Counted from the stretch's first letter, positions 2,952-29,378 are shown. The stretch: DNA of 30,862 bases from an uncultured Verrucomicrobiota bacterium (GCA_964574605.1 CAZNOK010000037.1:1-30862); one strand, 5' to 3'. The notes: generated from the letters alone by a model not told the origin. Numbers and translations are program-made.

Positions 2952-3827
2952 TCAGAACGGGAAGAGCTTTCGCAATTCGTTCTTCGTTGGTTGCCGGCCA
3001 TACTCGCACAACTCGAAAGCCTCGGCGTGCTGAATCTTCGGACCGCGCTCGGAGCCGCACCATTCAATCAGCTCTTTGCGGAACCGGTCAGCGACCGCGC
3101 GAAACCGTTTGTCCTGACTGGAGCGAACCTGCTTGATTCGCTGTTCGCGTTGCGCCGCGTTGGCGGGCAGAAGCGATTCGTTGGCGAGGCAGCCGCCTTC
3201 GAGGAATTGCGATTCCATGAACGCCAACGCATCGAGTTTCTTTTCGATCACAGGGTCAATGTCCACCACGATGTCGGCCTTCGATGGGTTCGGTTTCTGA
3301 AACCGGTCGGTGTAGTAGAGGAAGACCGGATTCTTTCTCAGCGCCGGAACGTCAGGACAAAAAAACGGCACCGCGACCATGAACGCAGCGTCCTGCACGA
3401 GAATCGCCGTGTACCGGTGGTCAGGATGATAATCCCACGGACGCGGCCCCATCACGATGTCGGCGTTCCACTCGCGGATGAGACGGGTGATGGTGCGCCG
3501 GTTTTCCAGCGTCGGCATCAACTCGCCATCGTGGATGTCGAGCACCTCGGTGGCGACGCCAAGCACCTTGTGGGCCTTCTCCACTTCCGCCTTGCGCCGG
3601 CGCGCCAGTGGTCCGCCGGCCTCGCGCCAATGACCAATGTCGCCGTTGGTGGTTGCGACGAGTTTGACATGGTGGCCTTTGGCCGCCCAGAGTGCGGCGG
3701 AGCCGCCAGCTTGTAGTTCGCAGTCGTCGGGATGCGCGCCAAAACAAATGATGCGGAGTTTGCCGTCCTCGGCGGCGAAACAGGAGAATCCGAGTGTGAG
3801 AATCACGCAACACAATTTGATATTCAT
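2952..3827 (-). CDS. PIG-L/LmbE family N-acetylglucosaminyl deacetylase, secreted.
   Basis: 291 aa. Signal peptide MNIKLCCVILTLGFSCFAA. The motif FGAHPDDCELQAGG is the LmbE/PIG-L signature (AHPDDE). ATG at 3827 overlaps the upstream stop as ATGA. Confidence 0.85.
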   Translation of the reverse strand: MNIKLCCVILTLGFSCFAAEDGKLRIICFGAHPDDCELQAGGSAALWAAKGHHVKLVATTNGDIGHWREAGGPLARRRKAEVEKAHKVLGVATEVLDIHDGELMPTLENRRTITRLIREWNADIVMGPRPWDYHPDHRYTAILVQDAAFMVAVPFFCPDVPALRKNPVFLYYTDRFQKPNPSKADIVVDIDPVIEKKLDALAFMESQFLEGGCLANESLLPANAAQREQRIKQVRSSQDKRFRAVADRFRKELIEWCGSERGPKIQHAEAFELCEYGRQPTKNELRKLFPF

Positions 3828-7227: not shown

Positions 7228-7287
7228 ACTTACCACAGTCAAACACCGTGGTGAAGCTCTGGTTGCAGGACGCGACCACCAGAGTCG

Positions 7288-7341
7288 TCATCACGCTCCG
7301 CGTGATGATTTTGAGGGCGATCCTCACGCGGAGCGTGAGGA
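7288..7341. repeat. Twin complementary hairpins, tcATCACGCtccGCGTGATga and tcCTCACGCggaGCGTGAGga, in the sulfatase-sulfatase intergenic gap.
   Basis: Hairpin 2 is the reverse complement of hairpin 1 (loop tcc versus gga) with one compensatory base-pair change (A:T to C:G). The spacer is ttttgagggcga. The pair sits in the 111-nt gap between the two sulfatase genes. Confidence 0.6.
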
Positions 7342-7353
7342 CTACTTCTCCGT

Positions 7354-8871
7354 TTATTCCTCGGCGGCAGTCTTCTTCTTACGGCCTTTCCCTTTGCCTT
7401 TCGCCTTGGCCGGGACGATCTCGCTGGGTGTGTTGGGGGTCGGCATTGGCGCGCCGATTTGTTTGCGCCAGGCAAGAAGTTTGTCGTGAAGTTCCTTGAG
7501 CTTGTCGGGCTGCGAGCCGGCGAGGTCGTGTTTCTCGCCGATGTCGTCTTTGAGGTTATAGAGTTCGCGTTTGCCGGTCTCGAAGAACTCCAAGAGTTTC
7601 CAGTCGCCGTCGCGGATGGTGCCGACCGGCGTGGTGCGCCAAGTATTTCCGCCGGAGCCGAGATAGCCGGGGAAATGCCAATAGAGCGCTTTGCGTTTCG
7701 CCTTGCTGCCGCCGGTCAGGAGATTGAGGTAACTGGTGCCGTCGAGCGTGTAAGCGGGGTCTGGTTTGCCTCCGGCGAGTTCGACCAGTGTCGGGTAGAG
7801 ATCAACACTGTTGATCGGTTCGTTGCAGACAGTGCCGGATTTGATCTTGCCCGGCCAGCGGAAGATATACGGGATGCGGACGCCGCCTTCGTAGAGCATT
7901 CCTTTGCCGCCGCGCAACGGCGCGTTGTCGGTGACGTCGCCGCCTTGGATGCCTTCGCGTTCGTAACCGCCGACGCCGCCGTTGTCGCTGGAGAAAACCA
8001 GCAGCGTGTTGTCGCTGAGTTTCAGTTCGTCGAGCAACGCCATGATGCGTCCGACGCTTTCATCCACACTGGCGATCATGCCGGCGTAGGTCGGGTTTTG
8101 ATGGCCGCCGACAGGCGATTTCGGTTTGAAGTGGTCAATCCAGTTCTGCTTGGCCTGAAGTGGCGTGTGGACGGCAAAGTGCGCCAGCACGAGGAAGAAC
8201 GGTTTTTCTTTGTGTCGTCGAATGAAATCAACTGATTTGTCGGCCAGCCAGTCGGCGAGATAAGTTCCTTTCGGGTAATCAACTTTCGGCTGCGTCTTAA
8301 AATCAAAGTGGACTCCCATTGAAGTAATCGCTTCGTCAAAACCGCGTTTGCCGGGATGATAATCGCCGTCTTGTCCGAGGTGCCATTTGCCGAAGTAGCC
8401 GGTGCTGTAGCCGGCTTTCTTGATGGCTTGGCCGATGGTGATTTTTTCGAGCGGCAGGTTCTGCACGTTGTCCACGGGCCGAAGTGTGCGGGTTTGCCAA
8501 GCGAACCGGTCAATGCCGCCGACGGTATAGACGCCGGTGCGCGGATTGTACTGGCCGCTCATCAATGCGGCGCGCGTCGGTTGGCAATTCGGACCGCAGG
8601 TGTAACCGCTGGCGAACTTCATTCCCTGCGCCGCCACGCGGTCAAGGTGCGGCGTCTCGTAGTACTTGCTTCCGTAGCAAGCGAGATCGGTGTAGCCAAG
8701 ATCATCAGCGAGAATGAAGACGATATTGGGTTTGGCGAGCGCTAACGGGGAAATTCCGGCGACGATTGCGATCAAGATGCATTGTAGGAGCGGCCTTCTG
8801 GCCGCGATTCGCCAACACAGTCGCGCCCAAAAGGGCGCTCCCACAGGACCTGCTATTCTTGATAGTTTCAT
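7354..8871 (-). CDS. Formylglycine-dependent sulfatase with a C-terminal Lys-rich tail and no EF-hand.
   Basis: The motif CGPNCQPTRAALMSG (CQPTR, C-x-P-x-R) is present. The N-terminal core reads PNIVFILADDLGYTD and the C-terminal tail reads AKAKGKGKGRKKK. ATG at 8871 overlaps the upstream TGA (ATGA). The alternative ATG at 8886 would overlap the upstream gene by 19 nt. Confidence 0.88.
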   Translation of the reverse strand: MKLSRIAGPVGAPFWARLCWRIAARRPLLQCILIAIVAGISPLALAKPNIVFILADDLGYTDLACYGSKYYETPHLDRVAAQGMKFASGYTCGPNCQPTRAALMSGQYNPRTGVYTVGGIDRFAWQTRTLRPVDNVQNLPLEKITIGQAIKKAGYSTGYFGKWHLGQDGDYHPGKRGFDEAITSMGVHFDFKTQPKVDYPKGTYLADWLADKSVDFIRRHKEKPFFLVLAHFAVHTPLQAKQNWIDHFKPKSPVGGHQNPTYAGMIASVDESVGRIMALLDELKLSDNTLLVFSSDNGGVGGYEREGIQGGDVTDNAPLRGGKGMLYEGGVRIPYIFRWPGKIKSGTVCNEPINSVDLYPTLVELAGGKPDPAYTLDGTSYLNLLTGGSKAKRKALYWHFPGYLGSGGNTWRTTPVGTIRDGDWKLLEFFETGKRELYNLKDDIGEKHDLAGSQPDKLKELHDKLLAWRKQIGAPMPTPNTPSEIVPAKAKGKGKGRKKKTAAEE

Positions 8872-10028
8872 AGTTTGTTCATCCATACAGTAGTTTCACG
8901 GTTGGCGGCAACAATATCCTGCAACACTTCTTCGTCGGGCCGCTCGGCGGCATCGAGCAACCCGCGTTTGCGACATTCATTTCGCAGATACGCCCCACAC
9001 AAGTGGGCGCCGACGCAGCCCGGCACTTTGCGGAGTCGTCGCGACATCTCCGCGTAACCCGCGCCGCTGTGACGCGGGGGACTATTCGTCCCTTTCACCG
9101 TCACAGCGTAATCGGCAAGCAACACCGGCTTGCCGGTTTTCTGGTGCCAGTGCGCCAGATTCTGCGCGACTGCTTCCGGTTTCGAGAAATGTTGGAAAGA
9201 GAACACGTCCACGAACGGTTTGGCGGCTTCCATGACTTCGTCGGCGATGGGACGGTTGGCCTCGTAGCGATCGCCAAGGATGAGATGGTGCTTGTCGTAT
9301 CGGCGAATCGCGTCGTGTGTGACCCGATAATATTGCGTCGCAAGCTCGAAAAGTTCCTTGCGTCCAGACTCGGTCTTGAGTTTCTCAGGGTTGAACAGCG
9401 GGCCTTTCCACTCGCATTCCGGGCGCGTGTGAATCCACGTCGGACAATCAATGTAGAAGTAACCAATCAGCTTCGGATCGTCCTTCATGCGCGCACAATG
9501 TTCGCGCGCGACGTAATCGCACCACTCGGCAAACTCCGGGCTGGCAAAGTTGGGATGCCGTGTCTCAGCCTCCCATTGGTGAAAATCGGCGAACGGCAAT
9601 TGATGACAATACGGCAAACCGAGCCATTGATATTCTTCAAACGTAAACGCGCGCGAGTGCCGGTGATTCGTTGGTCCGCGCGTGACGACTTCCTGTGTCC
9701 AACCAACGGTGTTGAATCCCCACGCGCGTAGGTCCGGCGCAACCGACTCTTTCAGCCATCGTTCCATCGAGTTGCCGTATTTGCGTTCCCAGAGGTCGCC
9801 GTTCGAGGTGAATCGCAACGGCGACGGGTCAATGTGGTTCAGGCCAATCGAGAAGAACGGTTTCCCTTCCGGCGTGATGAACCACCACCGACCGTTTCGC
9901 TGGGCAACGGAGAAAAATCGTCGCGGTGTCGTAGCCCCCGCGTTGAAAAACGTCCCCGCCAACGTCGCTATTCCGCCAGCAACAAGAAATTGCCGGCGGG
10001 ACAAAACGGAATGGGCGGTCGGCTTCAT
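8868..10028 (-). CDS. Tat-exported TIM-barrel glycoside hydrolase-like protein (GH-A clan, GH5-like).
   Basis: ATG at 10028 gives MKPTAHSVLSRRQFLVAGGIATLAG, with the twin-arginine motif SRRQFL. The segment NGRWWFITPEGKPFFSIGLNHI resembles the N-terminal strand of GH5-type hydrolases. Family assignment is tentative. Confidence 0.75.
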   Translation of the reverse strand: MKPTAHSVLSRRQFLVAGGIATLAGTFFNAGATTPRRFFSVAQRNGRWWFITPEGKPFFSIGLNHIDPSPLRFTSNGDLWERKYGNSMERWLKESVAPDLRAWGFNTVGWTQEVVTRGPTNHRHSRAFTFEEYQWLGLPYCHQLPFADFHQWEAETRHPNFASPEFAEWCDYVAREHCARMKDDPKLIGYFYIDCPTWIHTRPECEWKGPLFNPEKLKTESGRKELFELATQYYRVTHDAIRRYDKHHLILGDRYEANRPIADEVMEAAKPFVDVFSFQHFSKPEAVAQNLAHWHQKTGKPVLLADYAVTVKGTNSPPRHSGAGYAEMSRRLRKVPGCVGAHLCGAYLRNECRKRGLLDAAERPDEEVLQDIVAANRETTVWMNKL

Positions 10029-10039
10029 CAACGGCGGCA

Positions 10040-10069: not shown

Positions 10070-10099
10070 ACATTTGGATTTTGCGCTCGAAACCAGAAC

Positions 10100-11066: not shown

Positions 11067-11111
11067 TTCAATCGGCAACTACAAACCTTGTTGGTCAGCA
11101 CGTTTGGCTTC

Positions 11112-16825: not shown

Positions 16826-17731
16826 TTATCCCACAACATGGACGCCGCGCTCGCGCAGGTGGTCGTTCCACGACTTCATCGTCTCGCGCGAGGGCGGTTT
16901 CACGGTGTCGGGCAGCGCGGTGGTCAAGCCGAAACGCTTGAGCTTGGCGCGCCAGAGATCGAAATACGGTAGCAGTTCGACGCCGACAAGCTTCGGCAGC
17001 TTGCGCGACAACGCCACGATGCCGTCGAGATGTTCGCGCCGGGCGTTGCACTGCGGAATCATCGGGCAGCGCAACAGAATCTTTGCGCCTGCGTCGTGCA
17101 ACTGGCGGAGACGTTCGACGATGGTTTCGAGTTCGCGGCCGGTGAACTTCGCGTGGAGGTTCGGATCGGTCTCCTTGTAGTCGAACAACCACAAGTCCAC
17201 GACCTTCTTCAATCGTTCAAACACGTCCCACGCGGCGTAGCCCGATGTCTCAATGCAACAGTGGATGCCGCGGTTCTTCGCGGCGTGTAACAGATCCTCG
17301 GCAAACTCCGGCTGCAACAGCGGTTCGCCGCCGGAGAGCGTCATGCCGCCACCCGATTGAGTGTAGTAGTCGTTGTCGCGCAACACGACTTCGAGCGCTG
17401 CGTCCACGGTGACATCGCGTCCGACCATCTCCAGCGCCTTCGGGTCGCAGACGGACGCGCAAGCGCCGCTGTTCGTGCAGCGGGCGCGGTTGACAACCGC
17501 TTTGCCATCGGTGTCTTTCGTGAGCGCGTTTGGTTTGCAGACCTTGAAACACTCGCCGCAGGCGATGCACTTGTCAGGCAGGTAGGAAAGCTGCGGTTTC
17601 GGGTCAATGCTTTCCGGGTTGCTGCACCAGATGCAACGGAGTGGACAGCCTTTGAAAAACACTGTCGTGCGAATCCCCGGTCCGTCGTGGATCGAGAACC
17701 GCTGGATGTCGAAGATGCGCCCGACGCTCAT
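16826..17731 (-). CDS. Glycyl-radical enzyme activating protein (radical SAM, PflA family with two ferredoxin-like inserts).
   Basis: ATG at 17731 gives MSVGRIFDIQRFSIHDGPGIRTTVFFKGCPLRCIWCSNPES, which matches the GRE-activase signature F..GC.LRC.WC.NPE. It also has CIACGECFKVC and CTNSGACASVC clusters. It is 300 aa, has no signal peptide, and its start overlaps the upstream TGA (ATGA). Confidence 0.88.
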   Translation of the reverse strand: MSVGRIFDIQRFSIHDGPGIRTTVFFKGCPLRCIWCSNPESIDPKPQLSYLPDKCIACGECFKVCKPNALTKDTDGKAVVNRARCTNSGACASVCDPKALEMVGRDVTVDAALEVVLRDNDYYTQSGGGMTLSGGEPLLQPEFAEDLLHAAKNRGIHCCIETSGYAAWDVFERLKKVVDLWLFDYKETDPNLHAKFTGRELETIVERLRQLHDAGAKILLRCPMIPQCNARREHLDGIVALSRKLPKLVGVELLPYFDLWRAKLKRFGLTTALPDTVKPPSRETMKSWNDHLRERGVHVVG

Positions 17732-20346
17732 GGGATTGAAGTCTCCGCGCTGGCCGCCCAGTCGAAACGGACAACCACCACTCGCCGATTGGCCATGTCC
17801 GACACGTAGAGTTTGCCGTCGGCCTCGGCAAAGTCGCAGGCCACGGGACCTGCAAACGCGATTTCGGGGCCGATGCTGTCGCCGTTGCCGTAGGAGCCGA
17901 TTCGCGCGATGCGGTTGCCGGCAGAATCGAGCATTTCCACGGAGAACAACGTGGCGCTTGGCGCGAATACGCGCCCCCACAGGTCGGCGTCCAAATGCGA
18001 CGGCATGCACCGGCAACCGGGGTCGGGGCTGGGACCGTCAAGGCTCGTGGGGATGTTACCAACACCGCCATAGCGCCACTGGGCGCCGGTGACTTTGACG
18101 GTCCTTTCGAGGTAAGCCGATTTGTAGGTCGTCACGTTAGCGGGAGACTTTTCCAACTCCGTGCCCGGCGATGTCATCGGCGCGCCTTGCCTGCTGACTT
18201 TTTGTTGTCCGTACACGACACCGCCTTCCGGGCCAAACTTGAACACCGATCCCATGTGAAAGAGATATGGGTTCATGTAGATGTAACCCCACGGCGCTTT
18301 CTCCACCTTCTTCCGCCACCATGTCCAGTTGGAAACCGGCACTTGCCCGGCGAACTCGACCGGAAATGGCCTCTCGACGGGACGGATGTTCATGCCAACA
18401 TACAGATTGCCGTCGGCATCCACGCCGAGACCGGAATCCCCACCGCCGACTCCGGCCACCAGCCCGGCTTTTTTCAGTTTGCCGTCCGGCCCGTATTGAT
18501 CGAGCGAGGCACCGACGGCGTGGTTGACCGAGCGGATCACATAGATATCACCATTCGGAGCGACCCGGTGGCCGCGCAATCCCATGTCGGGACCGTAAGA
18601 CCGGAACTTCACCGGGATCTTGTTCGAGCCGGTGGCGGCAAAGGGCAACGGTTTGCCGTCCGGACTGTAACGCGCCAAGTGCGTATTCTCGTAGCCGTCG
18701 GTGCAATAAATGTTGCCAAGACTGTCCAAGGTGATGTCGCTTCCGGATAGGTTCAGGTGCGTCATCTTTCCGCTGGAGAGAGAGATCGCGCGGAAAGGCC
18801 GCTGATTTCGGATGACCAGATGTTCCTTGACGATAACCCGGTCTCGCGCGGGATCCGCAGCCAAGAAACTCGGTCCGACCAAGCCGCCGGTGTTGATGAT
18901 TGGCTGGCCGAGTGCAAACCTGCTGCCGTCAAACGCGACCGGCACCAGACGTTGTGATGGGGTTCTGATTGTCACCCAAAGTCGAGTAGGCGAATCGAGC
19001 GCCATCAGTTTCAATCCCGGCACTTCCAACTCAGCGAGCTTGTGGCACTTGCCTTCTTTCCACGGCGAAAATGCCGACAGTTTACCGGTCGGCGCTCTCT
19101 TCTCTGCGATTCGGGAAAGCACGAATATCCGCGAAGTCGCTGCGTCCACGCTGATTTGTTCAGGAGTCTCGACGCCGAATTTGCCCAACAGTTTTCCGTC
19201 TGCCGCGTAGATCTTGATGCGATGATTTCCACGGTCACACACGTAGAGGCGACCTTCTCTATCCACGGCAATGCCCTGCGGATCGTTGAACTCGTTTTCG
19301 CCGGCGCCGGGTTTGTCTTTGCCGAGCCACAGTTCGCCAAGTTTTTCGTCCGACCACTTCAGCCGATAGATGCCGTGCTTCCATATCTTCGTCTCGAAAC
19401 GACGCGTGGCGAAATGATGACTGAAGTAGATGTAATGGCCATCGGGACTGACCGCGAGGCGGTCCAGACCAACCGCCTCGCGTTCGCCGCCGCCGCCCAT
19501 GAACCCGCGCGCCTCAAGAATCTTCGGGCCGACAAACGGCACGCCCTCCGGCGCGCCACCGTGCGGATGAAACGCAATGAGATGACGCGGCGGACCATGT
19601 TCGCGCGCAGTGCCGGTGGAACTGGCAGCAATCAGGTATCCCTTCGGATGCACCGCCATCGTTTGACCGCGAATGCCGCAGACCAACGGATACACAGAAA
19701 AACTATGACCGCTGAAAAGAATCGGTGTTCGCCTGCCGTCCACCGTCAAGTGACCGACCGACTCGGTGCGTTCCTTGGGCGTGTTGGCCGGGTACGGCAT
19801 GATGGTGCGTAGATACTTGCCGTTCTTGTCGAGCACGAGCAATTCAGCCCGGCCAAACTTGGCTCCTTCCCCGTTCAACACGTAAAGCTCGCCATCCCGA
19901 CCAACCGTAATGGCCTCGATGCTGCCGACAAACGTGAGCGGCTCACGGCCCAGATATTTTTCCAGTTTCGCCTGCGATCCTGATCGCACCCGGACTTTGC
20001 AACCCCCAACAGCCACGGAACGACCAGCGTCGTCGCAACCGTTCCAGAAGAGTGTTTGCCTGAGCGTTCCTTTTTCCAGCGGCTTCGGCGCGTTTGGCCC
20101 CAGCAAACCGGCGGCCAGATGGCGGACAACGTTTCCGCGCGCATCAACTATCGCCACCTCAACATCCGTCGGCGCGGAGAGAGCAAATGTGATTTTCACC
20201 TGCCGCCCATCTTGAATTGCTCTCGGCGGCTCGGTAAAACGCGCTTCCAGTGTCTTGCGAACATCGAGCGGCGCCTCGATAGTTGGCTCGGCCAGCACGC
20301 GGCTCACCGCGAGCAATCCGGCAAACAGGATCGGTACGCATCTCAT
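17728..20346 (-). CDS. Secreted NHL-repeat beta-propeller protein of 872 aa (possible lactonase- or lyase-like).
   Basis: Signal peptide MRCVPILFAGLLAVSRVLA. NHL-type repeats are present, for example GRLYVCDRGNHRIKIYAADGKLLGKFG. ATG at 20346 overlaps the upstream stop (ATGA). Confidence 0.8.
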   Translation of the reverse strand: MRCVPILFAGLLAVSRVLAEPTIEAPLDVRKTLEARFTEPPRAIQDGRQVKITFALSAPTDVEVAIVDARGNVVRHLAAGLLGPNAPKPLEKGTLRQTLFWNGCDDAGRSVAVGGCKVRVRSGSQAKLEKYLGREPLTFVGSIEAITVGRDGELYVLNGEGAKFGRAELLVLDKNGKYLRTIMPYPANTPKERTESVGHLTVDGRRTPILFSGHSFSVYPLVCGIRGQTMAVHPKGYLIAASSTGTAREHGPPRHLIAFHPHGGAPEGVPFVGPKILEARGFMGGGGEREAVGLDRLAVSPDGHYIYFSHHFATRRFETKIWKHGIYRLKWSDEKLGELWLGKDKPGAGENEFNDPQGIAVDREGRLYVCDRGNHRIKIYAADGKLLGKFGVETPEQISVDAATSRIFVLSRIAEKRAPTGKLSAFSPWKEGKCHKLAELEVPGLKLMALDSPTRLWVTIRTPSQRLVPVAFDGSRFALGQPIINTGGLVGPSFLAADPARDRVIVKEHLVIRNQRPFRAISLSSGKMTHLNLSGSDITLDSLGNIYCTDGYENTHLARYSPDGKPLPFAATGSNKIPVKFRSYGPDMGLRGHRVAPNGDIYVIRSVNHAVGASLDQYGPDGKLKKAGLVAGVGGGDSGLGVDADGNLYVGMNIRPVERPFPVEFAGQVPVSNWTWWRKKVEKAPWGYIYMNPYLFHMGSVFKFGPEGGVVYGQQKVSRQGAPMTSPGTELEKSPANVTTYKSAYLERTVKVTGAQWRYGGVGNIPTSLDGPSPDPGCRCMPSHLDADLWGRVFAPSATLFSVEMLDSAGNRIARIGSYGNGDSIGPEIAFAGPVACDFAEADGKLYVSDMANRRVVVVRFDWAASAETSIP

Positions 20347-21419
20347 GGCAATTTCGTCAGCAACGATTTCAAGGCGGCTGTCATGGCGGCTTGATACCGC
20401 TCGACATCGGTCACGCGCAGGATGAACCGGTTCTTCGACTTAGGGTCTTTCATCCACTCCGTCACGCCGGCGGCAGAGCATTTCACGCGGACGGGTTCAA
20501 AGACAAACACCGGCTCGCGCTTGGATTCGAGCAGCGCGATCTCGCCGCTCTTCGTGACAGTTAACCCGGTAGCATGGAAAAATCCCGCCGTGCACCACAT
20601 GTTCCGGTCGCGATTGCCTTGTGCAGCGAGGCCGGCGACATCGTCCGGGGCAGTCAGTTGCCGGAGCCAAAGGCCATCAGGGATTTTTCCCCTAGCATAC
20701 ATGAACATGAAGAAGTTCTGCACGCGGTCCGACAGAAACGGAAGGATCTCGCTCTGGCGGAAACGATAGAACGAGCCGTATTCCGCGACGCGGGATGAGG
20801 TGCTGACAGTCTCGAAACACGGCAACCAATAGACAGGACACGGCGCGTTGAACATGGCGGCGTAGCTGGCGGGATCGAGTTTCACGTTCCACTCCAACTG
20901 GCGCGCCTTTACCGGGTCGGGCGTGCCGGAACCGGCATCGAGATAGATGGCGGCACATTGCCGCGCAAAAAGAGATGGCTCAAGACGCATTGCCAACGCC
21001 ACGTCGCGGCACGAACCAATCACGTGGATGGTCACAGGCCGCGGCGAGCGGCGCATCATTTCCAGAAACGCCCGCACTCCGGCCAAGTCGGCCGCAGCCG
21101 CGTCTGTTCGCAGTTCGTTTTCCGCCGGCACGCGCGGTGAGCCGACAACCAGGGGCACTGCCTTGCCGGTGATGTGGTTCATCTGTGCCACGGCACAGAT
21201 GTCGGGCGCATTAGAGCGGCCGGGCTGCGGGTAGTCAATCATCACACCGCGCAAATCCACCTTGTCCTGCCACGCCAGCGCATATTGCGTCGCCAAATCC
21301 CAGTGATCGTCCGGATCATTGTGTGGCCGGAACAAATCGGTCACGTGAAGCGTGGGCACCGGTGTCGCCCCTTCAGCAACCAAACAGGCGAACAAGAGAA
21401 TCAGAAATCGAAGAAGCAT
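20343..21419 (-). CDS. Secreted hypothetical protein, nucleoside-hydrolase-like (DUF1593-like?).
   Basis: 358 aa. Signal peptide MLLRFLILLFACLVAEG. The N-terminal motif LHVTDLFRPHNDPDDHWDLA is reminiscent of DUF1593/IUNH-fold proteins found in polysaccharide loci. Confidence 0.7.
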   Translation of the reverse strand: MLLRFLILLFACLVAEGATPVPTLHVTDLFRPHNDPDDHWDLATQYALAWQDKVDLRGVMIDYPQPGRSNAPDICAVAQMNHITGKAVPLVVGSPRVPAENELRTDAAAADLAGVRAFLEMMRRSPRPVTIHVIGSCRDVALAMRLEPSLFARQCAAIYLDAGSGTPDPVKARQLEWNVKLDPASYAAMFNAPCPVYWLPCFETVSTSSRVAEYGSFYRFRQSEILPFLSDRVQNFFMFMYARGKIPDGLWLRQLTAPDDVAGLAAQGNRDRNMWCTAGFFHATGLTVTKSGEIALLESKREPVFVFEPVRVKCSAAGVTEWMKDPKSKNRFILRVTDVERYQAAMTAALKSLLTKLP

Positions 21420-22271
21420 TTACTTCCTCCGTATTTGAAGCGTTTCCAGATCAACGTCCACCCACGCCGCCGAATCGTGGTTGCCCTTCGGGATTTCGTG
21501 ATACACGAAATTCTTCTTCCCCTTCATTGCCACCGCGATTTTCCGCGTCTCTGCCACGGGAATCAGTGGATCGTCTTCGCCCATCGTCAAAATGACCGGC
21601 ATCGTCAACTTGTCGGCGTGCGCCAACACAGAGCGCGCCCGGTAAAGTTCCGGTTTCTCCTCCAGCGAGCCGCCATACGCGGCGAACACCGTCTGGACAA
21701 GTTTCTGAAGCACCGGTTGCTCACTTTTCCGCGCGAACTCCAGTCGCGCGACGATGTCGCACATCCCCATCGCAACAACTCCGTGAATCTTCTCCGGATG
21801 CAACACCGCGTATGCCATCGCGCTGGATGCGCCGCCTGAGCCTCCCAGCAACACAAACCGTTTGCATCCGAGTTTGTCCCGGCAATGATCGAGCAAGCCC
21901 GTCAGATCCGCCGTCGCTGCCGGGCTCATATACGTGGTGCCGCGCGTATTGACCGACAGCAACGAATGACCGCCTTCTTGAATCCTGCTCAGCCAGAACT
22001 TACGGACGTCTTTGCGAGTGAAAATCTGGTCAGCGTAGGAGAACGATCCGTGAAGATAGACGACTGTGTTCTTGCTCGGGTCGCCGGGTAGGAACAGCGC
22101 CCAGTCCTCCGCGCCGTCGAACGCGTTGGTGAACGTGATCCGCATCGTTCCTTCCGGATACTCGGCCCCGCGCATCGCTGTCACCGACGTGACGGTTATC
22201 GGTTTGGGCTTCATCGGTTCGGCAGACGCGCAAACGGAAACACAAAGGGCCAATGCGAGGTGTTCCTTCAT
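21420..22271 (-). CDS. Secreted alpha/beta-hydrolase (esterase or peptidase-like).
   Basis: 283 aa. Signal peptide MKEHLALALCVSVCASA. The nucleophile-elbow-like motif LLGGSGGASSAMAY is present, with a C-terminal HEIPKGNHD (a catalytic His candidate). Confidence 0.8.
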   Translation of the reverse strand: MKEHLALALCVSVCASAEPMKPKPITVTSVTAMRGAEYPEGTMRITFTNAFDGAEDWALFLPGDPSKNTVVYLHGSFSYADQIFTRKDVRKFWLSRIQEGGHSLLSVNTRGTTYMSPAATADLTGLLDHCRDKLGCKRFVLLGGSGGASSAMAYAVLHPEKIHGVVAMGMCDIVARLEFARKSEQPVLQKLVQTVFAAYGGSLEEKPELYRARSVLAHADKLTMPVILTMGEDDPLIPVAETRKIAVAMKGKKNFVYHEIPKGNHDSAAWVDVDLETLQIRRK

Positions 22272-22278
22272 GTCTCAG

Positions 22279-23253
22279 TTAGGGTTTCTTAGTGCGAAGT
22301 TCGGCGAGGGAAACCTCGGCACCGCCCCGTTCCTTGCTGAGTTGGGCGGCGGTCATGAATTCGACGATCTCAAGGGTCTCCAACGGGTCCACCGGCACAC
22401 GTCCCGTGTGGAAGAACTCGGCCATCACCCGCACCAAGCCTTCGTAGCTGCTGCGACCTTTCGTTTGGGCCGAACCTCCTTCGCCCCAAATGCTGATCAT
22501 CGGAACTGACTTCCCTTTGACCGCGCTGCGATAAATCCCGATTCGCCCGTCTTTCCATTTGCCGGTCGTCACATCGGCGTCGCCATCCATCTTCCGCGTG
22601 ACGCTGACACAACCGCGCCCCAACACCGCATAGACGACCTCGACGCCGTGAATGCCGTAAAAAAACAAGTCGGGGTGATCCTTGAGGACGTTCAGCGGCG
22701 AACTGCCTTGGACCTTCGTGATTTTGCCCAAGCCGGGCGTCGTCAGCAGTTGCGGCAATTCAGGATGAAAACGGGATGACGAACAACTAAAGAACAGCGT
22801 GCCGGTCTCCTTCGAGAGTTGCACGATCTTTCGGGCGTCCTCCAAGCTGGCCGTCACCGGCTTGTCAATGAACAGACGTTTGCCGGCCTTGAGCACGGGC
22901 GTGGCCTGCGCCAGATGCGGCCGGCCATCCACGCTTTGCAGCAACACCACGTCCACTCGCTTCAGCAACTCCTCGATGCTCGGCACAATCTCGACGTTGT
23001 ATTTTTCCTGTAGCGTGGCGGCGAATTTTTCGAGGCGATCGGCGCTGGCAGGAATATCGGGGCTGCCGCCCTTGAATGCCGCAACCACCTTGATCTTCCA
23101 TTCCGGGTGCGACTGAAACAATCCGGCAAACGCCGGCACGTGCGAGGTGTCGGTGCCGATGACGCCCGCGCGAAGATCGCGTTTCGCCCAGTCGGGCGCC
23201 GGTTCTGCCGCGAGCACTGAGGTCGCGGCCAACATGAGTATCCAGAATTTCAC
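22279..23253 (-). CDS. Gfo/Idh/MocA-family oxidoreductase, Sec-secreted.
   Basis: GTG start at 23253, preceded by AAAGGAAA. Signal peptide (M)KFWILMLAATSVLAA. The Rossmann N-terminus reads LRAGVIGTDTSHVPAFAGLF and the C-terminal region is typical of Gfo/Idh/MocA proteins. Confidence 0.8.
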   Translation of the reverse strand: MKFWILMLAATSVLAAEPAPDWAKRDLRAGVIGTDTSHVPAFAGLFQSHPEWKIKVVAAFKGGSPDIPASADRLEKFAATLQEKYNVEIVPSIEELLKRVDVVLLQSVDGRPHLAQATPVLKAGKRLFIDKPVTASLEDARKIVQLSKETGTLFFSCSSSRFHPELPQLLTTPGLGKITKVQGSSPLNVLKDHPDLFFYGIHGVEVVYAVLGRGCVSVTRKMDGDADVTTGKWKDGRIGIYRSAVKGKSVPMISIWGEGGSAQTKGRSSYEGLVRVMAEFFHTGRVPVDPLETLEIVEFMTAAQLSKERGGAEVSLAELRTKKP

Positions 23254-23271
23254 GAGGTTTTCCTTTCGTTA

Positions 23272-24585
23272 TCAGAGTGGCCAGCCGGAGCGGTAGGTTT
23301 CCTTGATGAACCGGTCCGCCGCCGGACAATCCGCAGCCTTCATTTTCACGTGGTTCCACCGCAGCTTCTTCCCAGCGCGATACGCCACGTTGCCTAACAA
23401 CACCATTTCCGTCAACGCCGCGCCGTACTCGAAATTGCACGTCGTCGGGCCGCCACTCTTGCAGGCGTCCACCCATTCCCGGTGATGACCGACCGATGCG
23501 GGAATCGTCGGCGTCGGCTGGAAATCGCGGAACTTTGATTCGGGCAGCAATTTCCAGTTGGACAGATCGGCCGCCAACATCCCTTTATCGCCGACGAACA
23601 ACACCGTCGGTTTCCATTTGGCCATCTTCCATTCCGGCAGATTCTTCTCGTCGAGCGCCGCCGGCGGTGTTGCGCTGTGGTAAAAGTGCAACGTCACCGG
23701 CGGCATCTTGCCGCGCGCGGCAAACTCGTAACGAACCGTCATGCTTGTTGGCGAGGTCTCGGCGTGAACCGGCGGGCCTTTCGCCTCGATGCTGATCGGA
23801 TGGTTCAGGTTGAGCGCCCAGAATGGAATGTCCAGCGTGTGAACGCCGTTGTTGCCGGTCTCGCCGGTGCCGAAGTCCCACCAAAACCGCCATTTGTAGG
23901 GAACGTAATCCGGATGATACGGACGATAGGGCGCTGGCCCGAGCCAGAGGTCCCATTGCAAATGCGCCGGCACGGGAGGCGTGTCCGTCGGACGCTCGCC
24001 GCCGCCGCGACTGCCGCCGATCATCGCGTGCGCATCGCGCACCGGGCCGATGACGCCCGATTGAATGATCTCGACAATGCGGCGATGCGATTCCTTGGCG
24101 TGATGGTGCGTGCCCAACTGCGTCACCAGTTTTTTCTCCGCCGCAACCTTCGCCATCAGGCGGCATTCGTGGACATTGTGAGCCAGCGGTTTCTCGCAGA
24201 AACAATGTTTGCCCATCCGCATCGCCATCACGCTCGGCGAAGCGTGCGTGTGGTCGGGCGTGCTGACCACCACCGCGTCAATCTGACGGTCCATCTCCTC
24301 CAGCATCCGGCGAAAATCATAATACTTCTTTGCCTTGGGGTAGTTGACGTAGGCTTTGCCGGCGCGCTCGTCATCCACGTCGCAGAGCGCGACGACGTTG
24401 TCACCATAGCTGGCAATGGTCTTGAGATTCGCCGCGCCGCGTCCACCGAGGCCGATGAAAGCGATATTCAGCTTCTCATTGGGCGACTTTGTTTGCGCAC
24501 CAACAGCATGGCGCGCCGCCCACATTCCCGCGACCGTCGCGGCCGACCGCCGCAACATTTCACGACGACTGATGATGATGTTCAT
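23272..24585 (-). CDS. Gfo/Idh/MocA-family oxidoreductase with a Tat signal (GFOR- or GH109-like).
   Basis: ATG at 24585 gives MNIIISRREMLRRSAATVAGMWAARHAVGA, a twin-arginine signal. The Rossmann segment reads NIAFIGLGGRGAANLKTIASYGDNVVALCDVDD. It is about 437 aa. Confidence 0.85.
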   Translation of the reverse strand: MNIIISRREMLRRSAATVAGMWAARHAVGAQTKSPNEKLNIAFIGLGGRGAANLKTIASYGDNVVALCDVDDERAGKAYVNYPKAKKYYDFRRMLEEMDRQIDAVVVSTPDHTHASPSVMAMRMGKHCFCEKPLAHNVHECRLMAKVAAEKKLVTQLGTHHHAKESHRRIVEIIQSGVIGPVRDAHAMIGGSRGGGERPTDTPPVPAHLQWDLWLGPAPYRPYHPDYVPYKWRFWWDFGTGETGNNGVHTLDIPFWALNLNHPISIEAKGPPVHAETSPTSMTVRYEFAARGKMPPVTLHFYHSATPPAALDEKNLPEWKMAKWKPTVLFVGDKGMLAADLSNWKLLPESKFRDFQPTPTIPASVGHHREWVDACKSGGPTTCNFEYGAALTEMVLLGNVAYRAGKKLRWNHVKMKAADCPAADRFIKETYRSGWPL

Positions 24586-24603
24586 GATTTGCCCCACTTG
24601 AAT

Positions 24604-24674
24604 GTAGGGGCGCACTGCGTGCGCCCCGCTGCGACGAAGGAAACAACGGCGGGCGCACGCAGTGCGCCCCTACC
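24604..24674. repeat. REP-like hairpin pair C1: gtaGGGGCGCACtgcGTGCGCCCC, a spacer, then GGGCGCACgcagTGCGCCCCtacc.
   Basis: The GTAGGG/CCCTACC termini match copies A, B and C2, but the palindromic core is different. The two hairpins are inverted relative to each other (loops complementary). Confidence 0.7.
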
Positions 24675-24703
24675 AAGCTCGCTAGCACCTAGCAAATCCG
24701 CGG

Positions 24704-24777
24704 GTAGGGACGAGCCGCCGGCTCGTCCGCTTCGTTGACACGGCGACCGGCGGGCGACCCGGCGGGTCGCCCCTACC
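24704..24777. repeat. REP-like paired-hairpin element, copy C2 (same orientation as copy B).
   Basis: gtagGGACGAGCCgccGGCTCGTCCgc, a 21-nt spacer, then GGGCGACCCggcGGGTCGCCCctacc. It is near-identical to copy B, including a similar spacer (tcgttg...). It lies in the intergenic gap between the GRE stop at 24818 and the oxidoreductase start at 24585. Confidence 0.8.
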
Positions 24778-24817
24778 TGAACGGTGTGGGCGGTGTCAGT
24801 GTTGTTAAGCAACGCAC

Positions 24818-27166
24818 TCACATGTGCTCTGTCCGGGCGATGATTTCTTCCTGCATGTCGGGCGTCAGGTTCACGAAGAACTCGCTGAAACCGGCGACGC
24901 GCACCACCAAGTCACGATATTGTTCGGGATTCTTCTGCGCGGCGCGCAACGTCGCGCTGTCCACGACGTTGATCTGCAATTCCTGCCCACCGTTCTGGAA
25001 ATAGACGTTCAACATCGCGCGCAGTTTCTCGCGCTGACCGGCGTCGGCGATCATGCCGGCGTGGAAACGGATGTTGACCTGATAGGCGCACTGCCAACTC
25101 TTCGCGGGGTTGAGCTTGCAGACGGAGTTCAACACCGCGGTCGGGCCGGTGCGCTCGCAACCGACCGAGGCCGCGACGGAACTCGCCAGCGGCGTGCCCG
25201 CGAGCCGTCCATCGGGTGTCGCCGACGTCACGCGGCCTTGTTTGACCGCGCCACTGCGGACGACGTGGCTGTTGCCGAACTTGCTTCCATCGCGCGGGTC
25301 GCGACAGATCGCCTTCACCGGCTCGTCGCGCAACTGCTCGACCAGCGTGATGATGTCATCCAATTGCGGATCGTCGTTGCCGTGCTTGCCCGCGGCGCGC
25401 AGCTTGGCGCGGAGACGCTCGTGTCCCTCGAAATTGACGGCGCAGGCTGTCGCCACTTCGTCGAGCGTGGCCAGTTTCTTTTGATAGACGATCTCGCGCA
25501 CCGCGGCGATGGAATCCACCGCGTTGGCGAACCCGATGCCGCCGCAGGAAAGGATGTTGTATTTCGTACCCTGCGCCATGTCGCGTCCGCGCTCGATGCA
25601 GCCGTGGAAGAAACACGAAGTCAACGGCGTCACGCCCCACTCCATCTGCGCCTTCAACACCTGCATCTCTCTGGCGTACGACTGTTCGATTTGACGCCAC
25701 ATGTAAGCGCCGATGGCGGAAGCAAAATGGTTGAACGTCTTCAACTCGTTCACCAGCGGCGCGACCTTGTTCCACTTCCATTGTTTCTTGTAGCCTTTGC
25801 CGTTGGTGAGCGTGGCCTCGATGGCGGCGAGGTAGGCGATGTTCGCGCCGGGGTTGTAATAGCACTGGCCGGGCACGGCGAGTTCGTTGCAACCGACGGG
25901 CACGTAGTTGAACGCGTCCTCGCGCGACACGCCGAGCGCCATCAACCCTTCCGGCACGACCTTGTCGTTCCACATCATCGGGAAACAAGTCGTCCGCGCC
26001 AGCCGCGTCAGGCAGAAATCGAAAAACTTCTGGTCAATCTTCGGATGCCAACGAATCCAGACCAACGGCTCCGGCAACGCCATGTTCGTCGCGCCTTCGA
26101 TCATCAACCAACTCAGCTTGTTCGTCAGGTCGCGGCCATCCGGCGTCGAGCCGCCCACGACGAAGCCCTGCGTCAAGTGATGCTCCGGTCCCCAGTATGT
26201 GTTGTCGAACATCTTCAACACGAAATTCTCGACAAGCCGCACGACCTCGGCGTCGTCGAGCTTGTCGGCCTTGTAGAACGGCAACAACAACTGATCGAGC
26301 CGGTCCGGCGTGCACGAGTAACCGTGCCCCTCGATGTGAATCGCTTGATGCGCGAGCCAGACCAGTTGCAACGCCTCGCGGAATGTTTCCGGCGGTTCCG
26401 ATGCGATCTTCGCGCAAATCCGCGCCATCTCGGGGTCCTTCACGAACTTGCTGTAACGTTTCGCCCACGCGGACAGCCCCGCGAGCGTGTGTTCCGCCGC
26501 CGTGAGGAACGCGAGCTTCTCGGCGTCGGTCTCGCCCTGGCGCCGCGCCGCCACTTTGCGCCGCAAGCCGCCAATGCCAACGCGCAGCAACTCGCTGTAG
26601 CTCGGACAGAGATGTCCTTGATTCGAGATGAACTTGTAGCCGGGGTTCTGCTTCAACTCATCGTGACTCTTGACCTGCTTTTGCCCGGCGATCTTTGTCC
26701 GGAACAAGCCCCACATGTTCCGGTTCGCCCAATACTCGCGGATGTCTTCCGGCACTTTGCCCTTGAGGTAATCAGCGCGGTCGGGGCGTTCGCCGGTGTA
26801 GATGTTGTTGTCCGCGATACCCAGCTCGACCAGCAACGGCATCGCGCCCGGCTTCTCGCTGATTGAACCGGCGATGCGGTCGTGCGGACGCAGGTAGAGC
26901 GGCACTGTCTCGAAGTATTCGCGCAATGCCATCGCCTTGCGGACAATCCACGGCTCGCTTTCGTGTTGCTGGAAAACTTTCGTGAAGACCCTCGCCCGGT
27001 GCAACGCCACGTCAACCGGCGAATCCATCATCGCCTTTCGCAATGCCGCCATGTCCGCATGAGGCGTCTGCATTGCCGCATCCGCCGAGCGGACCTTACC
27101 GAAAACAATCAGACCGCCAGCCGTCATCCCGGCGGCTGCCAGAAACTCACGCCGTGAAATGTTCAT
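24818..27166 (-). CDS. Glycyl radical enzyme of the 1,2-eliminase class (Cys-x-Glu active site) carrying an N-terminal twin-arginine (Tat) signal peptide.
   Basis: 782 aa. The C-terminal glycyl-radical motif is VRVAGFSEFFVNLTPDMQEEIIARTEH (compare PFL RVSGY...LT..QQ.VI.RT.H). The catalytic loop PVGCNELAVPG has a single Cys followed by Glu, which is eliminase type and not PFL type. The N-terminus MNISRREFLAAAGMTAGGLIVFGKVRSADA|AMQ has an SRREFL motif, an h-region and an AxA site. A standard GRE N-terminal domain begins at about residue 40. ATG at 27166. Confidence 0.88.
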   Translation of the reverse strand: MNISRREFLAAAGMTAGGLIVFGKVRSADAAMQTPHADMAALRKAMMDSPVDVALHRARVFTKVFQQHESEPWIVRKAMALREYFETVPLYLRPHDRIAGSISEKPGAMPLLVELGIADNNIYTGERPDRADYLKGKVPEDIREYWANRNMWGLFRTKIAGQKQVKSHDELKQNPGYKFISNQGHLCPSYSELLRVGIGGLRRKVAARRQGETDAEKLAFLTAAEHTLAGLSAWAKRYSKFVKDPEMARICAKIASEPPETFREALQLVWLAHQAIHIEGHGYSCTPDRLDQLLLPFYKADKLDDAEVVRLVENFVLKMFDNTYWGPEHHLTQGFVVGGSTPDGRDLTNKLSWLMIEGATNMALPEPLVWIRWHPKIDQKFFDFCLTRLARTTCFPMMWNDKVVPEGLMALGVSREDAFNYVPVGCNELAVPGQCYYNPGANIAYLAAIEATLTNGKGYKKQWKWNKVAPLVNELKTFNHFASAIGAYMWRQIEQSYAREMQVLKAQMEWGVTPLTSCFFHGCIERGRDMAQGTKYNILSCGGIGFANAVDSIAAVREIVYQKKLATLDEVATACAVNFEGHERLRAKLRAAGKHGNDDPQLDDIITLVEQLRDEPVKAICRDPRDGSKFGNSHVVRSGAVKQGRVTSATPDGRLAGTPLASSVAASVGCERTGPTAVLNSVCKLNPAKSWQCAYQVNIRFHAGMIADAGQREKLRAMLNVYFQNGGQELQINVVDSATLRAAQKNPEQYRDLVVRVAGFSEFFVNLTPDMQEEIIARTEHM

Positions 27167-28448: not shown

Positions 28449-28484
28449 AAACTTGGAACCTAGATTAAGAGTCGAAGGAGAATT

Positions 28485-29348: not shown

Positions 29349-29378
29349 CCATTTCGCCTTGGAAAAATATTGCGTGGA

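Follow-up and report, generated by a model that had tools for sequence, protein, structure and literature searches.

The window analysed here, a 30,862-nt stretch of DNA from an uncultured Verrucomicrobiota bacterium (GCA_964574605.1 CAZNOK010000037.1:1-30862), encodes a glycyl radical enzyme (GRE) precursor of 782 aa at 24818..27166 on the minus strand, on which all features described below also lie. The precursor comprises a Tat leader, a PFL-like barrel, and a Gly-radical domain: Pfam places the PFL-like domain (PF02901) at residues 42-609 (E 6e-108) and the Gly_radical domain (PF01228) at residues 662-765 (E 1e-24), the latter containing the glycyl radical motif RVAGFS (R756-V-A-G759-F-S, residues 756-761; 24884..24901). 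The Cys loop GCNE (G425-C426-N427-E428; 25883..25894), unchanged throughout our alignment A1, is a CXE motif, which in GREs supplies the thiyl-radical Cys and the general-base Glu (PMC13450708). Alignment to glycerol dehydratase (GDH; 1R8W) pairs C426, E428, H185, and G759 with GDH C433, E435, H164, and G763, and the four residues are invariant across the 48 sequences, outgroups included, of our alignment A1. His185 (26612..26614) is the counterpart of GDH His164, which has been proposed to protonate the leaving hydroxyl. The ten-stranded PFL-like barrel of the GRE superfamily is present, judging from PF02901 and Foldseek TM-scores of 0.82-0.87 to GRE structures, and the AF2 model (pLDDT 87.6) shares the fold of 1R8W, CutC, and YbiW with a TM-score of 0.85. 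With an RVxG-type C-terminal domain, a Cys-loop cysteine, and a radical SAM activase bearing CxxxCxxC, the locus carries the hallmarks of the superfamily, and these sequence signatures show the predicted protein to be a complete GRE of the CXE type (1,2-eliminase/isomerase). An earlier sequence-only reading of this DNA had proposed both the glycyl-radical C-terminus and the eliminase-type Cys-x-Glu loop, and the protein aligns with GDH at both.

None of the NCBIfam equivalog thresholds was reached by the GRE. Its best solved-structure match was the 1R8W glycerol dehydratase (328 bits, TM 0.85); identity as a glycerol/propanediol dehydratase (GD, PD) was rejected, TIGR01774 giving 419 bits against a cut-off of 678 and GDH pocket residues N156, H281, and D447 being replaced by Y, Y, and P, with H164 and S282 retained. 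CutC and HypD identities were likewise rejected (TIGR04394, 280 vs 1050; NF043068, 266 vs 1100), as was that of a C-S lyase/sulfonate GRE such as HpsG, HpfG, or IslA (NF048011, 318; NF048009, 295; cut-off 1000 each). IslA structures matched with 213-225 bits, and the cleavage of sulfo-sugar C-S bonds, which had been suggested for this enzyme, finds no support in models or structures that all score far under threshold.

Downstream of the GRE, a 232-nt spacer (24586..24817) contains four REP-like GC-rich palindromes, one of which, with its T-rich tail (24651-24669), is terminator-like; such sites are no more numerous in this region than expected from shuffling. With this palindrome-filled spacer between them, the GRE is not translationally coupled to the downstream array. 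Five genes follow: a Tat-signal GFO/IDH/MocA oxidoreductase (MNIIISRREML...; 23272..24585; Pfam GFO_IDH_MocA and C2 domains), related to the BT_2158 glycoside 3-dehydrogenase family but below its cut-off (NF058561, 359 vs 750 bits); a Sec-signal GFO/IDH/MocA-type oxidoreductase (22279..23253); a Sec-signal alpha/beta hydrolase (21420..22271), whose orthologue lies directly 3' of the GRE in 5 other loci; a Sec-signal nucleoside-hydrolase-like protein (20343..21419; PF01156, 2e-10), whose orthologue adjoins the activase in one related locus (L025); and a Sec-signal NHL-repeat beta-propeller protein (17728..20346), whose stop codon overlaps the activase start by 4 nt. All five (5/5) begin with Sec- or Tat-type signals, as the sequence-only reading had claimed. 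Three signal-bearing S1 sulfatases (3824-5584, 5581-7227, and 7354-8886, spanning 3824..8886; Pfam Sulfatase and SGSH_C) belong to the same strand array.

The GRE-activating radical SAM enzyme (16826..17731; 301 aa, with a ferredoxin-like insert) scored 332 bits against the TIGR02494 cut-off of 174 and carries the motif CPLRCIWC (17624..17647). Its N-terminus fits the activase profile from residue 6 and gave no Tat match, in keeping with the earlier view that it lacks a signal peptide. In 17/27 related loci the activase adjoins the GRE, and in most relatives it lies directly downstream. Judging from gene order, the 7-kb separation is a local rearrangement particular to the window, and the ancestral order is GRE-activase. 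The activase had been placed at the far end of a coupled array shared with the GRE; the 7-kb distance stands, but the GRE is uncoupled and the separation is window-specific.

The GRE leader (residues 1-30, MNISRREFLAAAGMTAGGLIVFGKVRSADA; 27077..27166) matches the Tat signal model TIGR01409 over residues 3-29 with 20.4 bits, above the curated cut-off of 16.7. Among four other Tat-clade members, P0020 and P0041 pass, while P0069 (12.3 bits) and P0121 (11.7 bits) fall below. The twin-arginine motif S4-R5-R6-E7-F8-L9 (SRREFL; 27140..27157) is followed, by eye, by a moderately hydrophobic h-region (AAAGMTAGGLIVFG), by K24 and R26, and by A28-D29-A30, with the predicted signal-peptidase site between ADA and A; a Gly/Ala-rich h-region, basic c-region, and AxA-type site also occur in many homologues, including the closest relatives of the window. 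The motif [ST]RRxFL is present in 112/120 of the closest homologues (66-100% identity), and this conservation excludes a chance origin of the twin arginines. Across 45 aligned Tat-clade members, RR is conserved at 100%, F at 96%, and L at 89%, the h-region varies in sequence and length, and mean conservation is 0.50 in the leader versus 0.82 in the mature part. A canonical twin-arginine signal had been read from the window alone, with its retention by orthologues set as a test, and these counts agree with it. In the AF2 model, the leader lies outside the fold (pLDDT <50 for residues 1-28). Such a variable, low-confidence segment is as found in signal peptides.

Neighbor-joining recovers the Tat-GREs as a monophyletic clade, with a leaderless clade as its sister; three further outgroups also have no leader, and the leaderless outgroups keep GCNE and the glycyl motif. 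The sister-clade N-terminus reads MRFEFPxNHD..., with in-frame stops just upstream. The tree shows that the Tat signal on this GRE had a single origin and was then retained. Since the sister clade has the same cytoplasmic partners and no leader, the leader was added to a pathway enzyme that already existed in the cytoplasm. It is kept down to ~60% identity in MAGs of Verrucomicrobia, Lentisphaerae, Planctomycetes, and Bryobacteraceae. Among ~145 representatives of other GRE families, RR leaders occurred only in the P0221 family, besides fragments of the window GRE's own family, and some members of a second, unrelated GRE family carry Tat leaders above the HMM cut-off. According to their record titles, the relatives come from groundwater, sediment, an anaerobic bioreactor, and the deep water of stratified lakes, habitats that we read as largely anoxic.

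The secreted enzymes of the window are not the partners conserved across relatives, which are a Sec-exported sulfatase and a cytoplasmic GntR/GFO/TIM-barrel/ROK/DeoC module. In several Verrucomicrobia and Lentisphaerae loci, the gene for a Sec-exported sulfatase borders directly on the GRE start or overlaps it. Signal peptides were found on 27/27 sulfatases in Tat-GRE loci and on 0/3 in confirmed leaderless-GRE loci (L033, L040, and L048); the two sulfatases of L061 and L063 also have none, and these are likely sister-clade loci, with GRE fragments 90-92% identical to the leaderless P0125 and their own N-termini missing. Sulfatase localization thus correlates with the GRE leader, in counts that ignore shared ancestry and comprise three confirmed and two probable loci on the leaderless side. 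Linkage of the GRE to GFO_c5, TIM_c4, ROK, and DeoC is shared by the Tat clade and the leaderless sister clade, and DeoC exceeds its equivalog cut-off (186 vs 117 bits). The DeoC link points to C-O cleavage yielding a deoxy sugar as the putative GRE chemistry.

Taken together, we consider it reasonably probable that the window encodes a catalytically competent CXE-type GRE that acquired a functional Tat signal, is armed in the cytoplasm, exported folded, and active in the periplasm. The precursor would fold in the cytoplasm, where the radical SAM activase, itself lacking a signal, would draw on SAM and a reductant of that compartment to install the radical on Gly759; activation would probably precede export. 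Tat would then export the folded, radical-bearing enzyme, signal peptidase would presumably cleave after Ala30, and the GRE, which we infer to be actually exported, would turn over in an anoxic periplasm without re-activation. Its substrate may be a small sugar-derived molecule freed by the Sec-exported sulfatases and glycosidases, and its chemistry most likely a radical C-O cleavage/dehydration adjacent to a hydroxyl, of the kind known from glycerol dehydratase, giving a deoxy-carbonyl sugar; the identity of the substrate and of a 2-deoxy-sugar product is speculative. With the remaining conserved enzymes of the pathway cytoplasmic and the sister clade evidently running all of it in the cytoplasm, export requires that the GRE step come first and that its product be imported. 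The cytoplasmic GFO oxidoreductase, TIM-barrel enzyme, ROK kinase, and deoxyribose-phosphate aldolase could then convert the product to acetaldehyde and triose phosphate. Several observations count against export: a GRE quenched in the periplasm could not be re-activated, no conserved transporter adjoins the Tat-clade genes in the compared loci, some clade members (P0069 and P0121) fall short of the Tat HMM cut-off, and we know of no case in which Tat has carried a protein radical.

Were the true start downstream and the leader untranslated 5' sequence, the eight database homologues annotated as leaderless would be accounted for; all eight, however, start downstream of the leader, which fits truncated gene calls or cut contigs, and for two of them, L013 and L009, the DNA upstream of the annotated start encodes the leader or has Ns hiding it. 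The leader frame with its invariant RR is maintained in >100 sequences, to 60% identity, and was translated from DNA at at least 40 loci, whereas in relatives that really lack a leader, stop codons lie immediately 5' of the start. ATG 27166, the start assumed in the sequence-only reading, is the first start codon after the in-frame upstream stop, and Met32 is not conserved. An annotation artefact is therefore scarcely credible, and by these comparisons the leader is a genuine, conserved Tat signal. Met32 might instead serve as a second start, or export might be inefficient, so that a cytoplasmic GRE pool performs the catalysis while the rest is exported; Met32 lies one residue past the predicted cleavage site, so translation begun at this codon would yield an ordinary GRE with no leader, and the conserved partner enzymes are cytoplasmic. 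But most homologues have A, V, L, or P at position 32, so that an internal start cannot be a solution shared by the family; nothing resembling a Shine-Dalgarno sequence was seen ahead of Met32, and selection on the leader would be left unexplained. We regard such dual localization as quite improbable.

A translated and conserved RR leader need not direct export: it could act as a membrane-face or cytoplasmic targeting or chaperone-binding peptide, holding the GRE at the membrane or coordinating its activation, comparably to the vestigial Tat motif known from NarG/NarJ. This would suit the cytoplasmic location of DeoC, ROK, GFO, and TIM-barrel partners, some co-transcribed with the Tat-GRE (L012, L015, and L050), the sister clade working in the cytoplasm, and a cysteine content that is not lowered (16 vs 13 per protein), all of which count against export. 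We nevertheless consider it unlikely, because the entire tripartite signal is retained beyond the RR (h-region, basic c-region, and, in the window and many other members, AxA), the curated Tat model is passed, sulfatase localization shifts along with the GRE leader, and all window neighbors are exported. Export without the radical, for a non-radical periplasmic role such as binding or scaffolding, would sidestep both radical passage through Tat and re-activation; the invariance of G759, C426, E428, and H185, the high conservation of the mature part, and the dedicated activase beside the GRE gene in most of the loci compared make it very doubtful.

An exported GRE would be new, as had been claimed: no exported GRE was found in the searchable literature, and a June 2026 GRE review makes no mention of a periplasmic GRE, its compartment section covering microcompartments only. 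Tat-borne export is thus not previously described for this class. To our knowledge, the oxygen-sensitive GREs are viewed as strictly confined to the cytoplasm or to microcompartments, since they depend on SAM, a reductant, and an activase of the radical SAM type. A conserved Tat-GRE clade would imply that the glycyl radical withstands passage across the membrane and sustains many turnovers unrepaired and, if true, would widen both the range of Tat cargo and the sites open to radical chemistry. More broadly, and with confidence and doubt in equal measure, Tat may carry a cytoplasmically installed glycyl radical to the periplasm, an arrangement that would have emerged at least twice, in two unrelated GRE families of anaerobic polysaccharide degraders, as a membrane-bounded alternative to microcompartments; for the window GRE it would open an undescribed route on which a desulfated sugar or polyol undergoes radical dehydration to a 2-deoxy sugar for cleavage by DeoC. 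The findings also point to an uncharacterized anaerobic sugar pathway comprising the GRE, GFO, a TIM-barrel enzyme, ROK, and DeoC, tied to sulfatases in MAGs of Verrucomicrobia and Planctomycetes that are widespread and, by record title, come from groundwater, sediments, and deep lake water. The defined leader, the matched leaderless sister enzyme as a natural control, and the dedicated activase make this system directly testable.

Among characterized enzymes, the window GRE resembles the Clostridium butyricum B12-independent glycerol dehydratase (1R8W/1R9D) and other C-O-cleaving GRE 1,2-eliminases in its CXE loop, His164 equivalent, and Gly-radical domain, and shares with glycerol dehydratase a dedicated activase with a ferredoxin-like insert. 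It is, however, just ~27-30% identical to that enzyme, has an N-terminal Tat signal and a Y, Y, P pocket, and belongs to a clade partnered by a sulfatase and the DeoC/ROK/GFO/TIM module, whereas glycerol dehydratase is accompanied by 1,3-propanediol genes or a microcompartment. Second among solved structures (284-290 bits) come YbiW/PflD (8ID7, 8ID0), 'isomerases' of the anhydro-hexitol-6-phosphate pathway, which are likewise CXE-type GREs with a sugar derivative as substrate; their product, a deoxy-keto sugar phosphate, is then split by an aldolase (PMC13450708). Unlike the window GRE, YbiW/PflD use phosphorylated and hence cytoplasmic substrates, have FSA rather than DeoC as the aldolase, and lack a signal peptide. 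The leaderless sister clade (L033, L038-L048) is 50-60% identical to the window GRE, with the same GFO, TIM-barrel, ROK, and DeoC neighbors and the catalytic motifs kept (GCNE in P0125), but with neither a leader nor signal peptides on its sulfatases and with the activase rarely adjacent.

Tat-exported cofactor enzymes (Zymomonas glucose-fructose oxidoreductase, periplasmic hydrogenases, and TorA/DmsA) mature in the cytoplasm and are exported folded, some of them being oxygen-sensitive. By analogy, the window GRE would need cytoplasmic maturation and hence folded Tat export, although the part of the "cofactor" would be played by a glycyl radical on the backbone, put in place by a radical SAM enzyme, and not by a metal centre or nucleotide; we know of no described Tat cargo of this kind. 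The only GRE-eliminase compartmentalization described so far is that of glycyl radical enzyme microcompartments (GRMs), believed to keep aldehyde products contained and perhaps to restrict oxygen (PMC13450708). Whereas GRMs are cytoplasmic protein shells that also enclose the activase, the compartment of the window GRE would be the periplasm, with the activase left behind.

The open reading frame at 24818..27166 on the minus strand encodes a 782-aa glycyl radical enzyme (GRE), with Pfam PFL-like at residues 42-609 (E 6e-108) and Gly_radical at residues 662-765. Its nearest solved structure is the B12-independent glycerol dehydratase (GDH; PDB 1R8W, 328 bits), followed by YbiW, propanediol dehydratase, PflD and CutC, and in alignment to 1R8W its C426, E428, H185 and G759 correspond to GDH C433, E435, H164 and G763. 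An AlphaFold model built with 48 homologues (mean pLDDT 87.6, pTM 0.88) superposed on GDH, CutC and YbiW with TM 0.84-0.87. The domains, aligned catalytic residues and fold therefore describe a complete CXE-type GRE. It belongs to the GRE superfamily and, within this, to the CXE group, and falls short of the thresholds for all characterised GRE functions: the top NCBIfam model was TIGR01774 (PFL2/glycerol-dehydratase subfamily; 419 bits vs a cut-off of 678), and all equivalogs for characterised GREs scored far under threshold (CutC 280/1050, HypD 266/1100). With no NCBIfam equivalog threshold reached and PDB relatives at or below ~30% identity, assignment to a known function was rejected. The C-S cleavage of a sulfo-sugar floated as speculation in the sequence-only reading likewise finds no support, since sulfo-lyase equivalog scores were well short of their cut-offs (e.g., HpsG 318/1000). 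A cluster look-up of the window proteins returned neither names nor accessions.

Residues 1-30 of this GRE (MNISRREFLAAAGMTAGGLIVFGKVRSADA) form a twin-arginine (Tat) leader. The curated Tat-signal model TIGR01409 matched residues 3-29 (20.4 bits vs a cut-off of 16.7) and had no match in the window activase or in one leaderless relative. The ORF, GRE domains and leader noticed in the sequence-only reading were all confirmed. Residues 1-28 have pLDDT <50 in the structure model, with the confidently modelled fold starting near residue 31. A signal peptidase site is predicted between ADA and A, with a mature start at A31 (AMQTPHADM...); the predicted semi-tryptic peptide of the processed N-terminus is AMQTPHADMAALR. 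A search of 5.8 billion proteins gave 880 matches, and among the best 120 (66-100% identity; MAGs labelled Verrucomicrobia, Planctomycetes and Pirellulaceae) the motif [ST]RRxFL is present in 112, which argues against the universal absence of the leader from orthologues that would have undermined the original observation. The remaining eight all start downstream of the leader, fitting truncated gene calls or cut contigs; when two were traced to DNA, one had the leader upstream (L013) and the other had it masked by Ns (L009). Across 45 aligned clade members, RR is conserved in 100%, F in 96% and L in 89%, while the leader outside the motif differs among members in both sequence and length (mean top-residue frequency 0.50 vs 0.82 in the mature protein), as would be expected for a functional signal peptide. 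The ATG at 27166 is the first start codon past the upstream stop, and at Met32, whose use as a start would remove the leader, most relatives have A, V, L or P, leaving no conserved alternative start. A start-codon artefact is ruled out by the homologue leaders, the DNA checks and the upstream stops in leaderless relatives.

The Tat-GRE family is compact: in a profile-free scan of 1.84 billion cluster representatives it formed essentially one 50%-identity cluster, and its nearest outside relatives (48%, 43% and 37% identity) all lack the leader. When P0125, the closest leaderless relative (54% identity to the window GRE), was used to seed a metagenome scan, about a dozen loci of a sister clade were recovered. 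GRE N-termini in these loci were located by a BLAST-anchored method; sister-clade proteins start MRFEFPxNHD..., 17-18 residues ahead of the first conserved motif, and in several loci stop codons directly upstream leave no space for a signal. The 3' part of P0125 is frameshifted in a noisy assembly; its N-terminus was checked on DNA and confirmed in cleaner loci. In a neighbour-joining tree without support values, Tat-bearing sequences form one clade, sister to the leaderless clade, with leaderless outgroups. The simplest reading is that the leader was acquired once and then retained through divergence to ~60% identity, across MAGs labelled Verrucomicrobia, Lentisphaerae, Planctomycetes (Pirellulaceae, Thermoguttaceae) and Bryobacteraceae. 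The habitats given in record titles of relatives are groundwater, deep stratified lakes, sediment and an anaerobic bioreactor. One Bryobacteraceae chromosome (OY764903.1, 1156-12343; locus L018) carries two Tat-leader GRE paralogues (776 and 804 aa) within 11 kb, accompanied by at least five sulfatases, most with RR-type leaders.

Sulfatase signal peptides track the GRE leader. For every sulfatase ORF in the fetched loci, we inspected the region from the upstream stop to the start of the mature protein, marked by the conserved PNIIxIxxDD. Hydrophobic leaders of Sec or Tat type were present in 27/27 sulfatases of Tat-GRE loci and in 0/3 of confirmed leaderless-GRE loci, namely L033 (1238-2764), L040 (about 9050, with a stop codon four codons before the mature sequence) and L048 (about 14940). 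Two more signal-less sulfatases, in L061 and L063, accompany GRE fragments 90-92% identical to P0125, whose N-termini are missing and whose clade is inferred. Such signal-less sulfatases would be cytoplasmic formylglycine-type enzymes, which are uncommon. Although these counts ignore shared ancestry and are small on the leaderless side, GRE leader and partner sulfatase signal change together, as expected if the leader sets the compartment. In several Verrucomicrobia and Lentisphaerae loci, the gene for a Sec-exported sulfatase directly adjoins the GRE start or runs into it. Two of the three window sulfatases (3824-5584 and 5581-7227) end in C-terminal EF-hand pairs (Pfam EF-hand_1, EF-hand_7).

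In both clades the GRE is linked to four signal-less enzymes: a GFO/IDH/MocA oxidoreductase (top model levoglucosan dehydrogenase, 192 bits, under cut-off), an AP_endonuc_2 TIM barrel, a ROK sugar kinase and a deoxyribose-phosphate aldolase (DeoC; TIGR00126, 186 bits vs a cut-off of 117), often beside a GntR or DeoR regulator. Among 27 Tat-clade loci we counted GFO in 14, DeoC, TIM and sulfatase in 13 each, GntR in 10 and ROK in five; among nine leaderless loci, GFO, DeoC and TIM each occurred in six and ROK in three. These partners, shared by both clades, place the GRE in an old cytoplasmic sugar pathway ending in DeoC-type cleavage; export signals on the enzyme and on the accompanying sulfatase were gained in one lineage. 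In the 48%-identical leaderless relative, an ABC sugar importer accompanies the partner genes; next to Tat-clade genes we saw no conserved transporter, and the GFO/TIM/ROK/DeoC module is absent from the window itself. In one leaderless-clade locus (L033:5157-7070), the TIM barrel and ROK kinase were called as one 637-aa fusion, an uncertain call given assembly indels.

The minus strand of the window from ~27.2 kb down to 2.9 kb is a gene array for exported glycan-degrading proteins. The activase (16826..17731, minus strand; TIGR02494, 332 bits vs 174), with its CPLRCIWC motif and ferredoxin-like insert, begins straight at the conserved activase N-terminus, and its start overlaps the stop of a Sec-exported NHL-propeller gene. 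It lies ~7 kb from the GRE, as the sequence-only reading described, yet this distance is not the rule: an activase adjoins the GRE in 17/27 non-redundant Tat-clade loci, usually immediately downstream, and the gap is therefore a local rearrangement. Within it lie genes for two oxidoreductases, one a Tat GFO enzyme and the other a Sec GFO-type enzyme, for an alpha/beta hydrolase that is also encoded 3' of the GRE in five more loci, for a nucleoside-hydrolase-like protein and for the NHL propeller, all five exported. The GRE stop is separated from the start of the Tat-GFO gene by a 232-nt spacer (24586-24817), which holds four GC-rich palindromes flanked by GGTAGGGGCG and CGCCCCTACC, including a perfect 23-nt inverted repeat (24604-24626 / 24651-24673) and a 28-nt, 86% repeat (24703-24730 / 24750-24777); they look like REP-type elements, with a T-rich tail after one. 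The GRE is therefore not translationally coupled to the downstream array, contrary to the single coupled array with the activase proposed earlier. Counts of intrinsic terminators and promoters, considered as operon evidence, were no higher than shuffled expectation, and Rfam gave no riboswitch or other RNA element across the whole window.

Other features of the window and related loci were also recorded. A T5orf172/MUG113-domain protein (11112-12146, minus strand) and two small plus-strand ORFs break the secreted-enzyme array at 10276-12146 and may be a mobile insertion. Two large minus-strand ORFs (8868-10160 and 12321-14441) have no Pfam or NCBIfam match, the former with a Tat-type leader (SRRQFLVAGGIATLAG; TIGR01409, 18.7 bits). 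Divergent from the GRE, plus-strand genes at 27417-30047 encode an SPFH Band_7_1 protein with a SHOCT tail, a zinc-ribbon protein and one ORF of no assigned family, and seem unrelated to the glycan genes. In two Verrucomicrobia/Lentisphaerae loci, a small Sec-signal rhodanese-domain protein lies 3' of the activase (L001:13450-13836; L008, about 13411-13788).

Tat leaders also occur in an unrelated GRE family, typified by P0221 (32% identical to the window GRE), many members of which have RR leaders and others not. The MAG labels of RR-leader members are Planctomycetes, Verrucomicrobia and Kiritimatiellales, and two leaders passed TIGR01409 (P0284, 20.3 bits; P0294, 19.0). In the four loci L036, L037, L066 and L067, the genes either lie directly 3' of one for a TonB-like outer-membrane protein or, within a GH106 operon, overlap one encoding a rhamnogalacturonan-lyase-like protein, with no adjacent activase. 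The pairing of a GRE with a Tat leader therefore seems to recur among anaerobic polysaccharide degraders. In L067 (1-4054), a Tat-GRE gene of this second family is enclosed by class I aminoacyl-tRNA synthetase gene fragments (tRNA-synt_1, Anticodon_1, GRE, Anticodon_1), either an insertion or an assembly chimera.

The conserved leader and co-varying sulfatase signals support export, the main interpretation of the sequence-only reading, and we consider true periplasmic localisation moderately probable. Several observations count against it: we know of no precedent for exporting a glycyl radical protein; re-activation in the periplasm is impossible; partner enzymes are cytoplasmic and in three loci (L012, L015, L050) share a transcription unit with the Tat-GRE; and two of five tested clade N-termini score below the TIGR01409 cut-off. 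Cysteine content of the GRE is not lowered (16 vs 13 Cys per protein) and is uninformative on location. As the main alternative, the leader could be retained without exporting the enzyme, as in NarG; we rate this improbable because the clade keeps a complete tripartite signal and sulfatase signals co-vary with the leader.

If exported, the window GRE would fold and receive its radical in the cytoplasm, because activase, SAM and reductant are located there. Tat, a route for proteins needing maturation before export and to our knowledge the only one compatible with a pre-installed radical, would then move the folded enzyme across the membrane; signal peptidase would cut the precursor between ADA and A, and the buried radical might sustain many turnovers in an anoxic periplasm. 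Dehydrating a terminal diol as GDH does yields a 2-deoxy-aldehyde, which, once phosphorylated, is the kind of molecule DeoC splits. Conversion of a polyol to a 2-deoxy-aldose would fit the link to ROK and DeoC, a speculation based on GDH similarity and the DeoC link only. A periplasmic GRE would have to act first, on an unphosphorylated substrate, with its product imported.

No relevant paper turned up when the literature was searched for glycyl radical enzymes together with twin-arginine, Tat signal, periplasm, signal peptide or deoxyribose aldolase. In GDH, CXE and His164 serve deprotonation of the radical-carbon hydroxyl and protonation of the leaving group, according to a comprehensive June 2026 GRE review (PMC13450708). 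Retention of CXE and the His164 equivalent in the window GRE suggests C-O cleavage next to a hydroxyl. At the positions of GDH pocket residues N156, H281 and D447, the window enzyme has Y, Y and P. The words periplasm, twin-arginine, signal peptide and secreted are all absent from that review, whose section on GRE compartments covers bacterial microcompartments only (PMC13450708); the Tat leader is a new feature on a known kind of enzyme.
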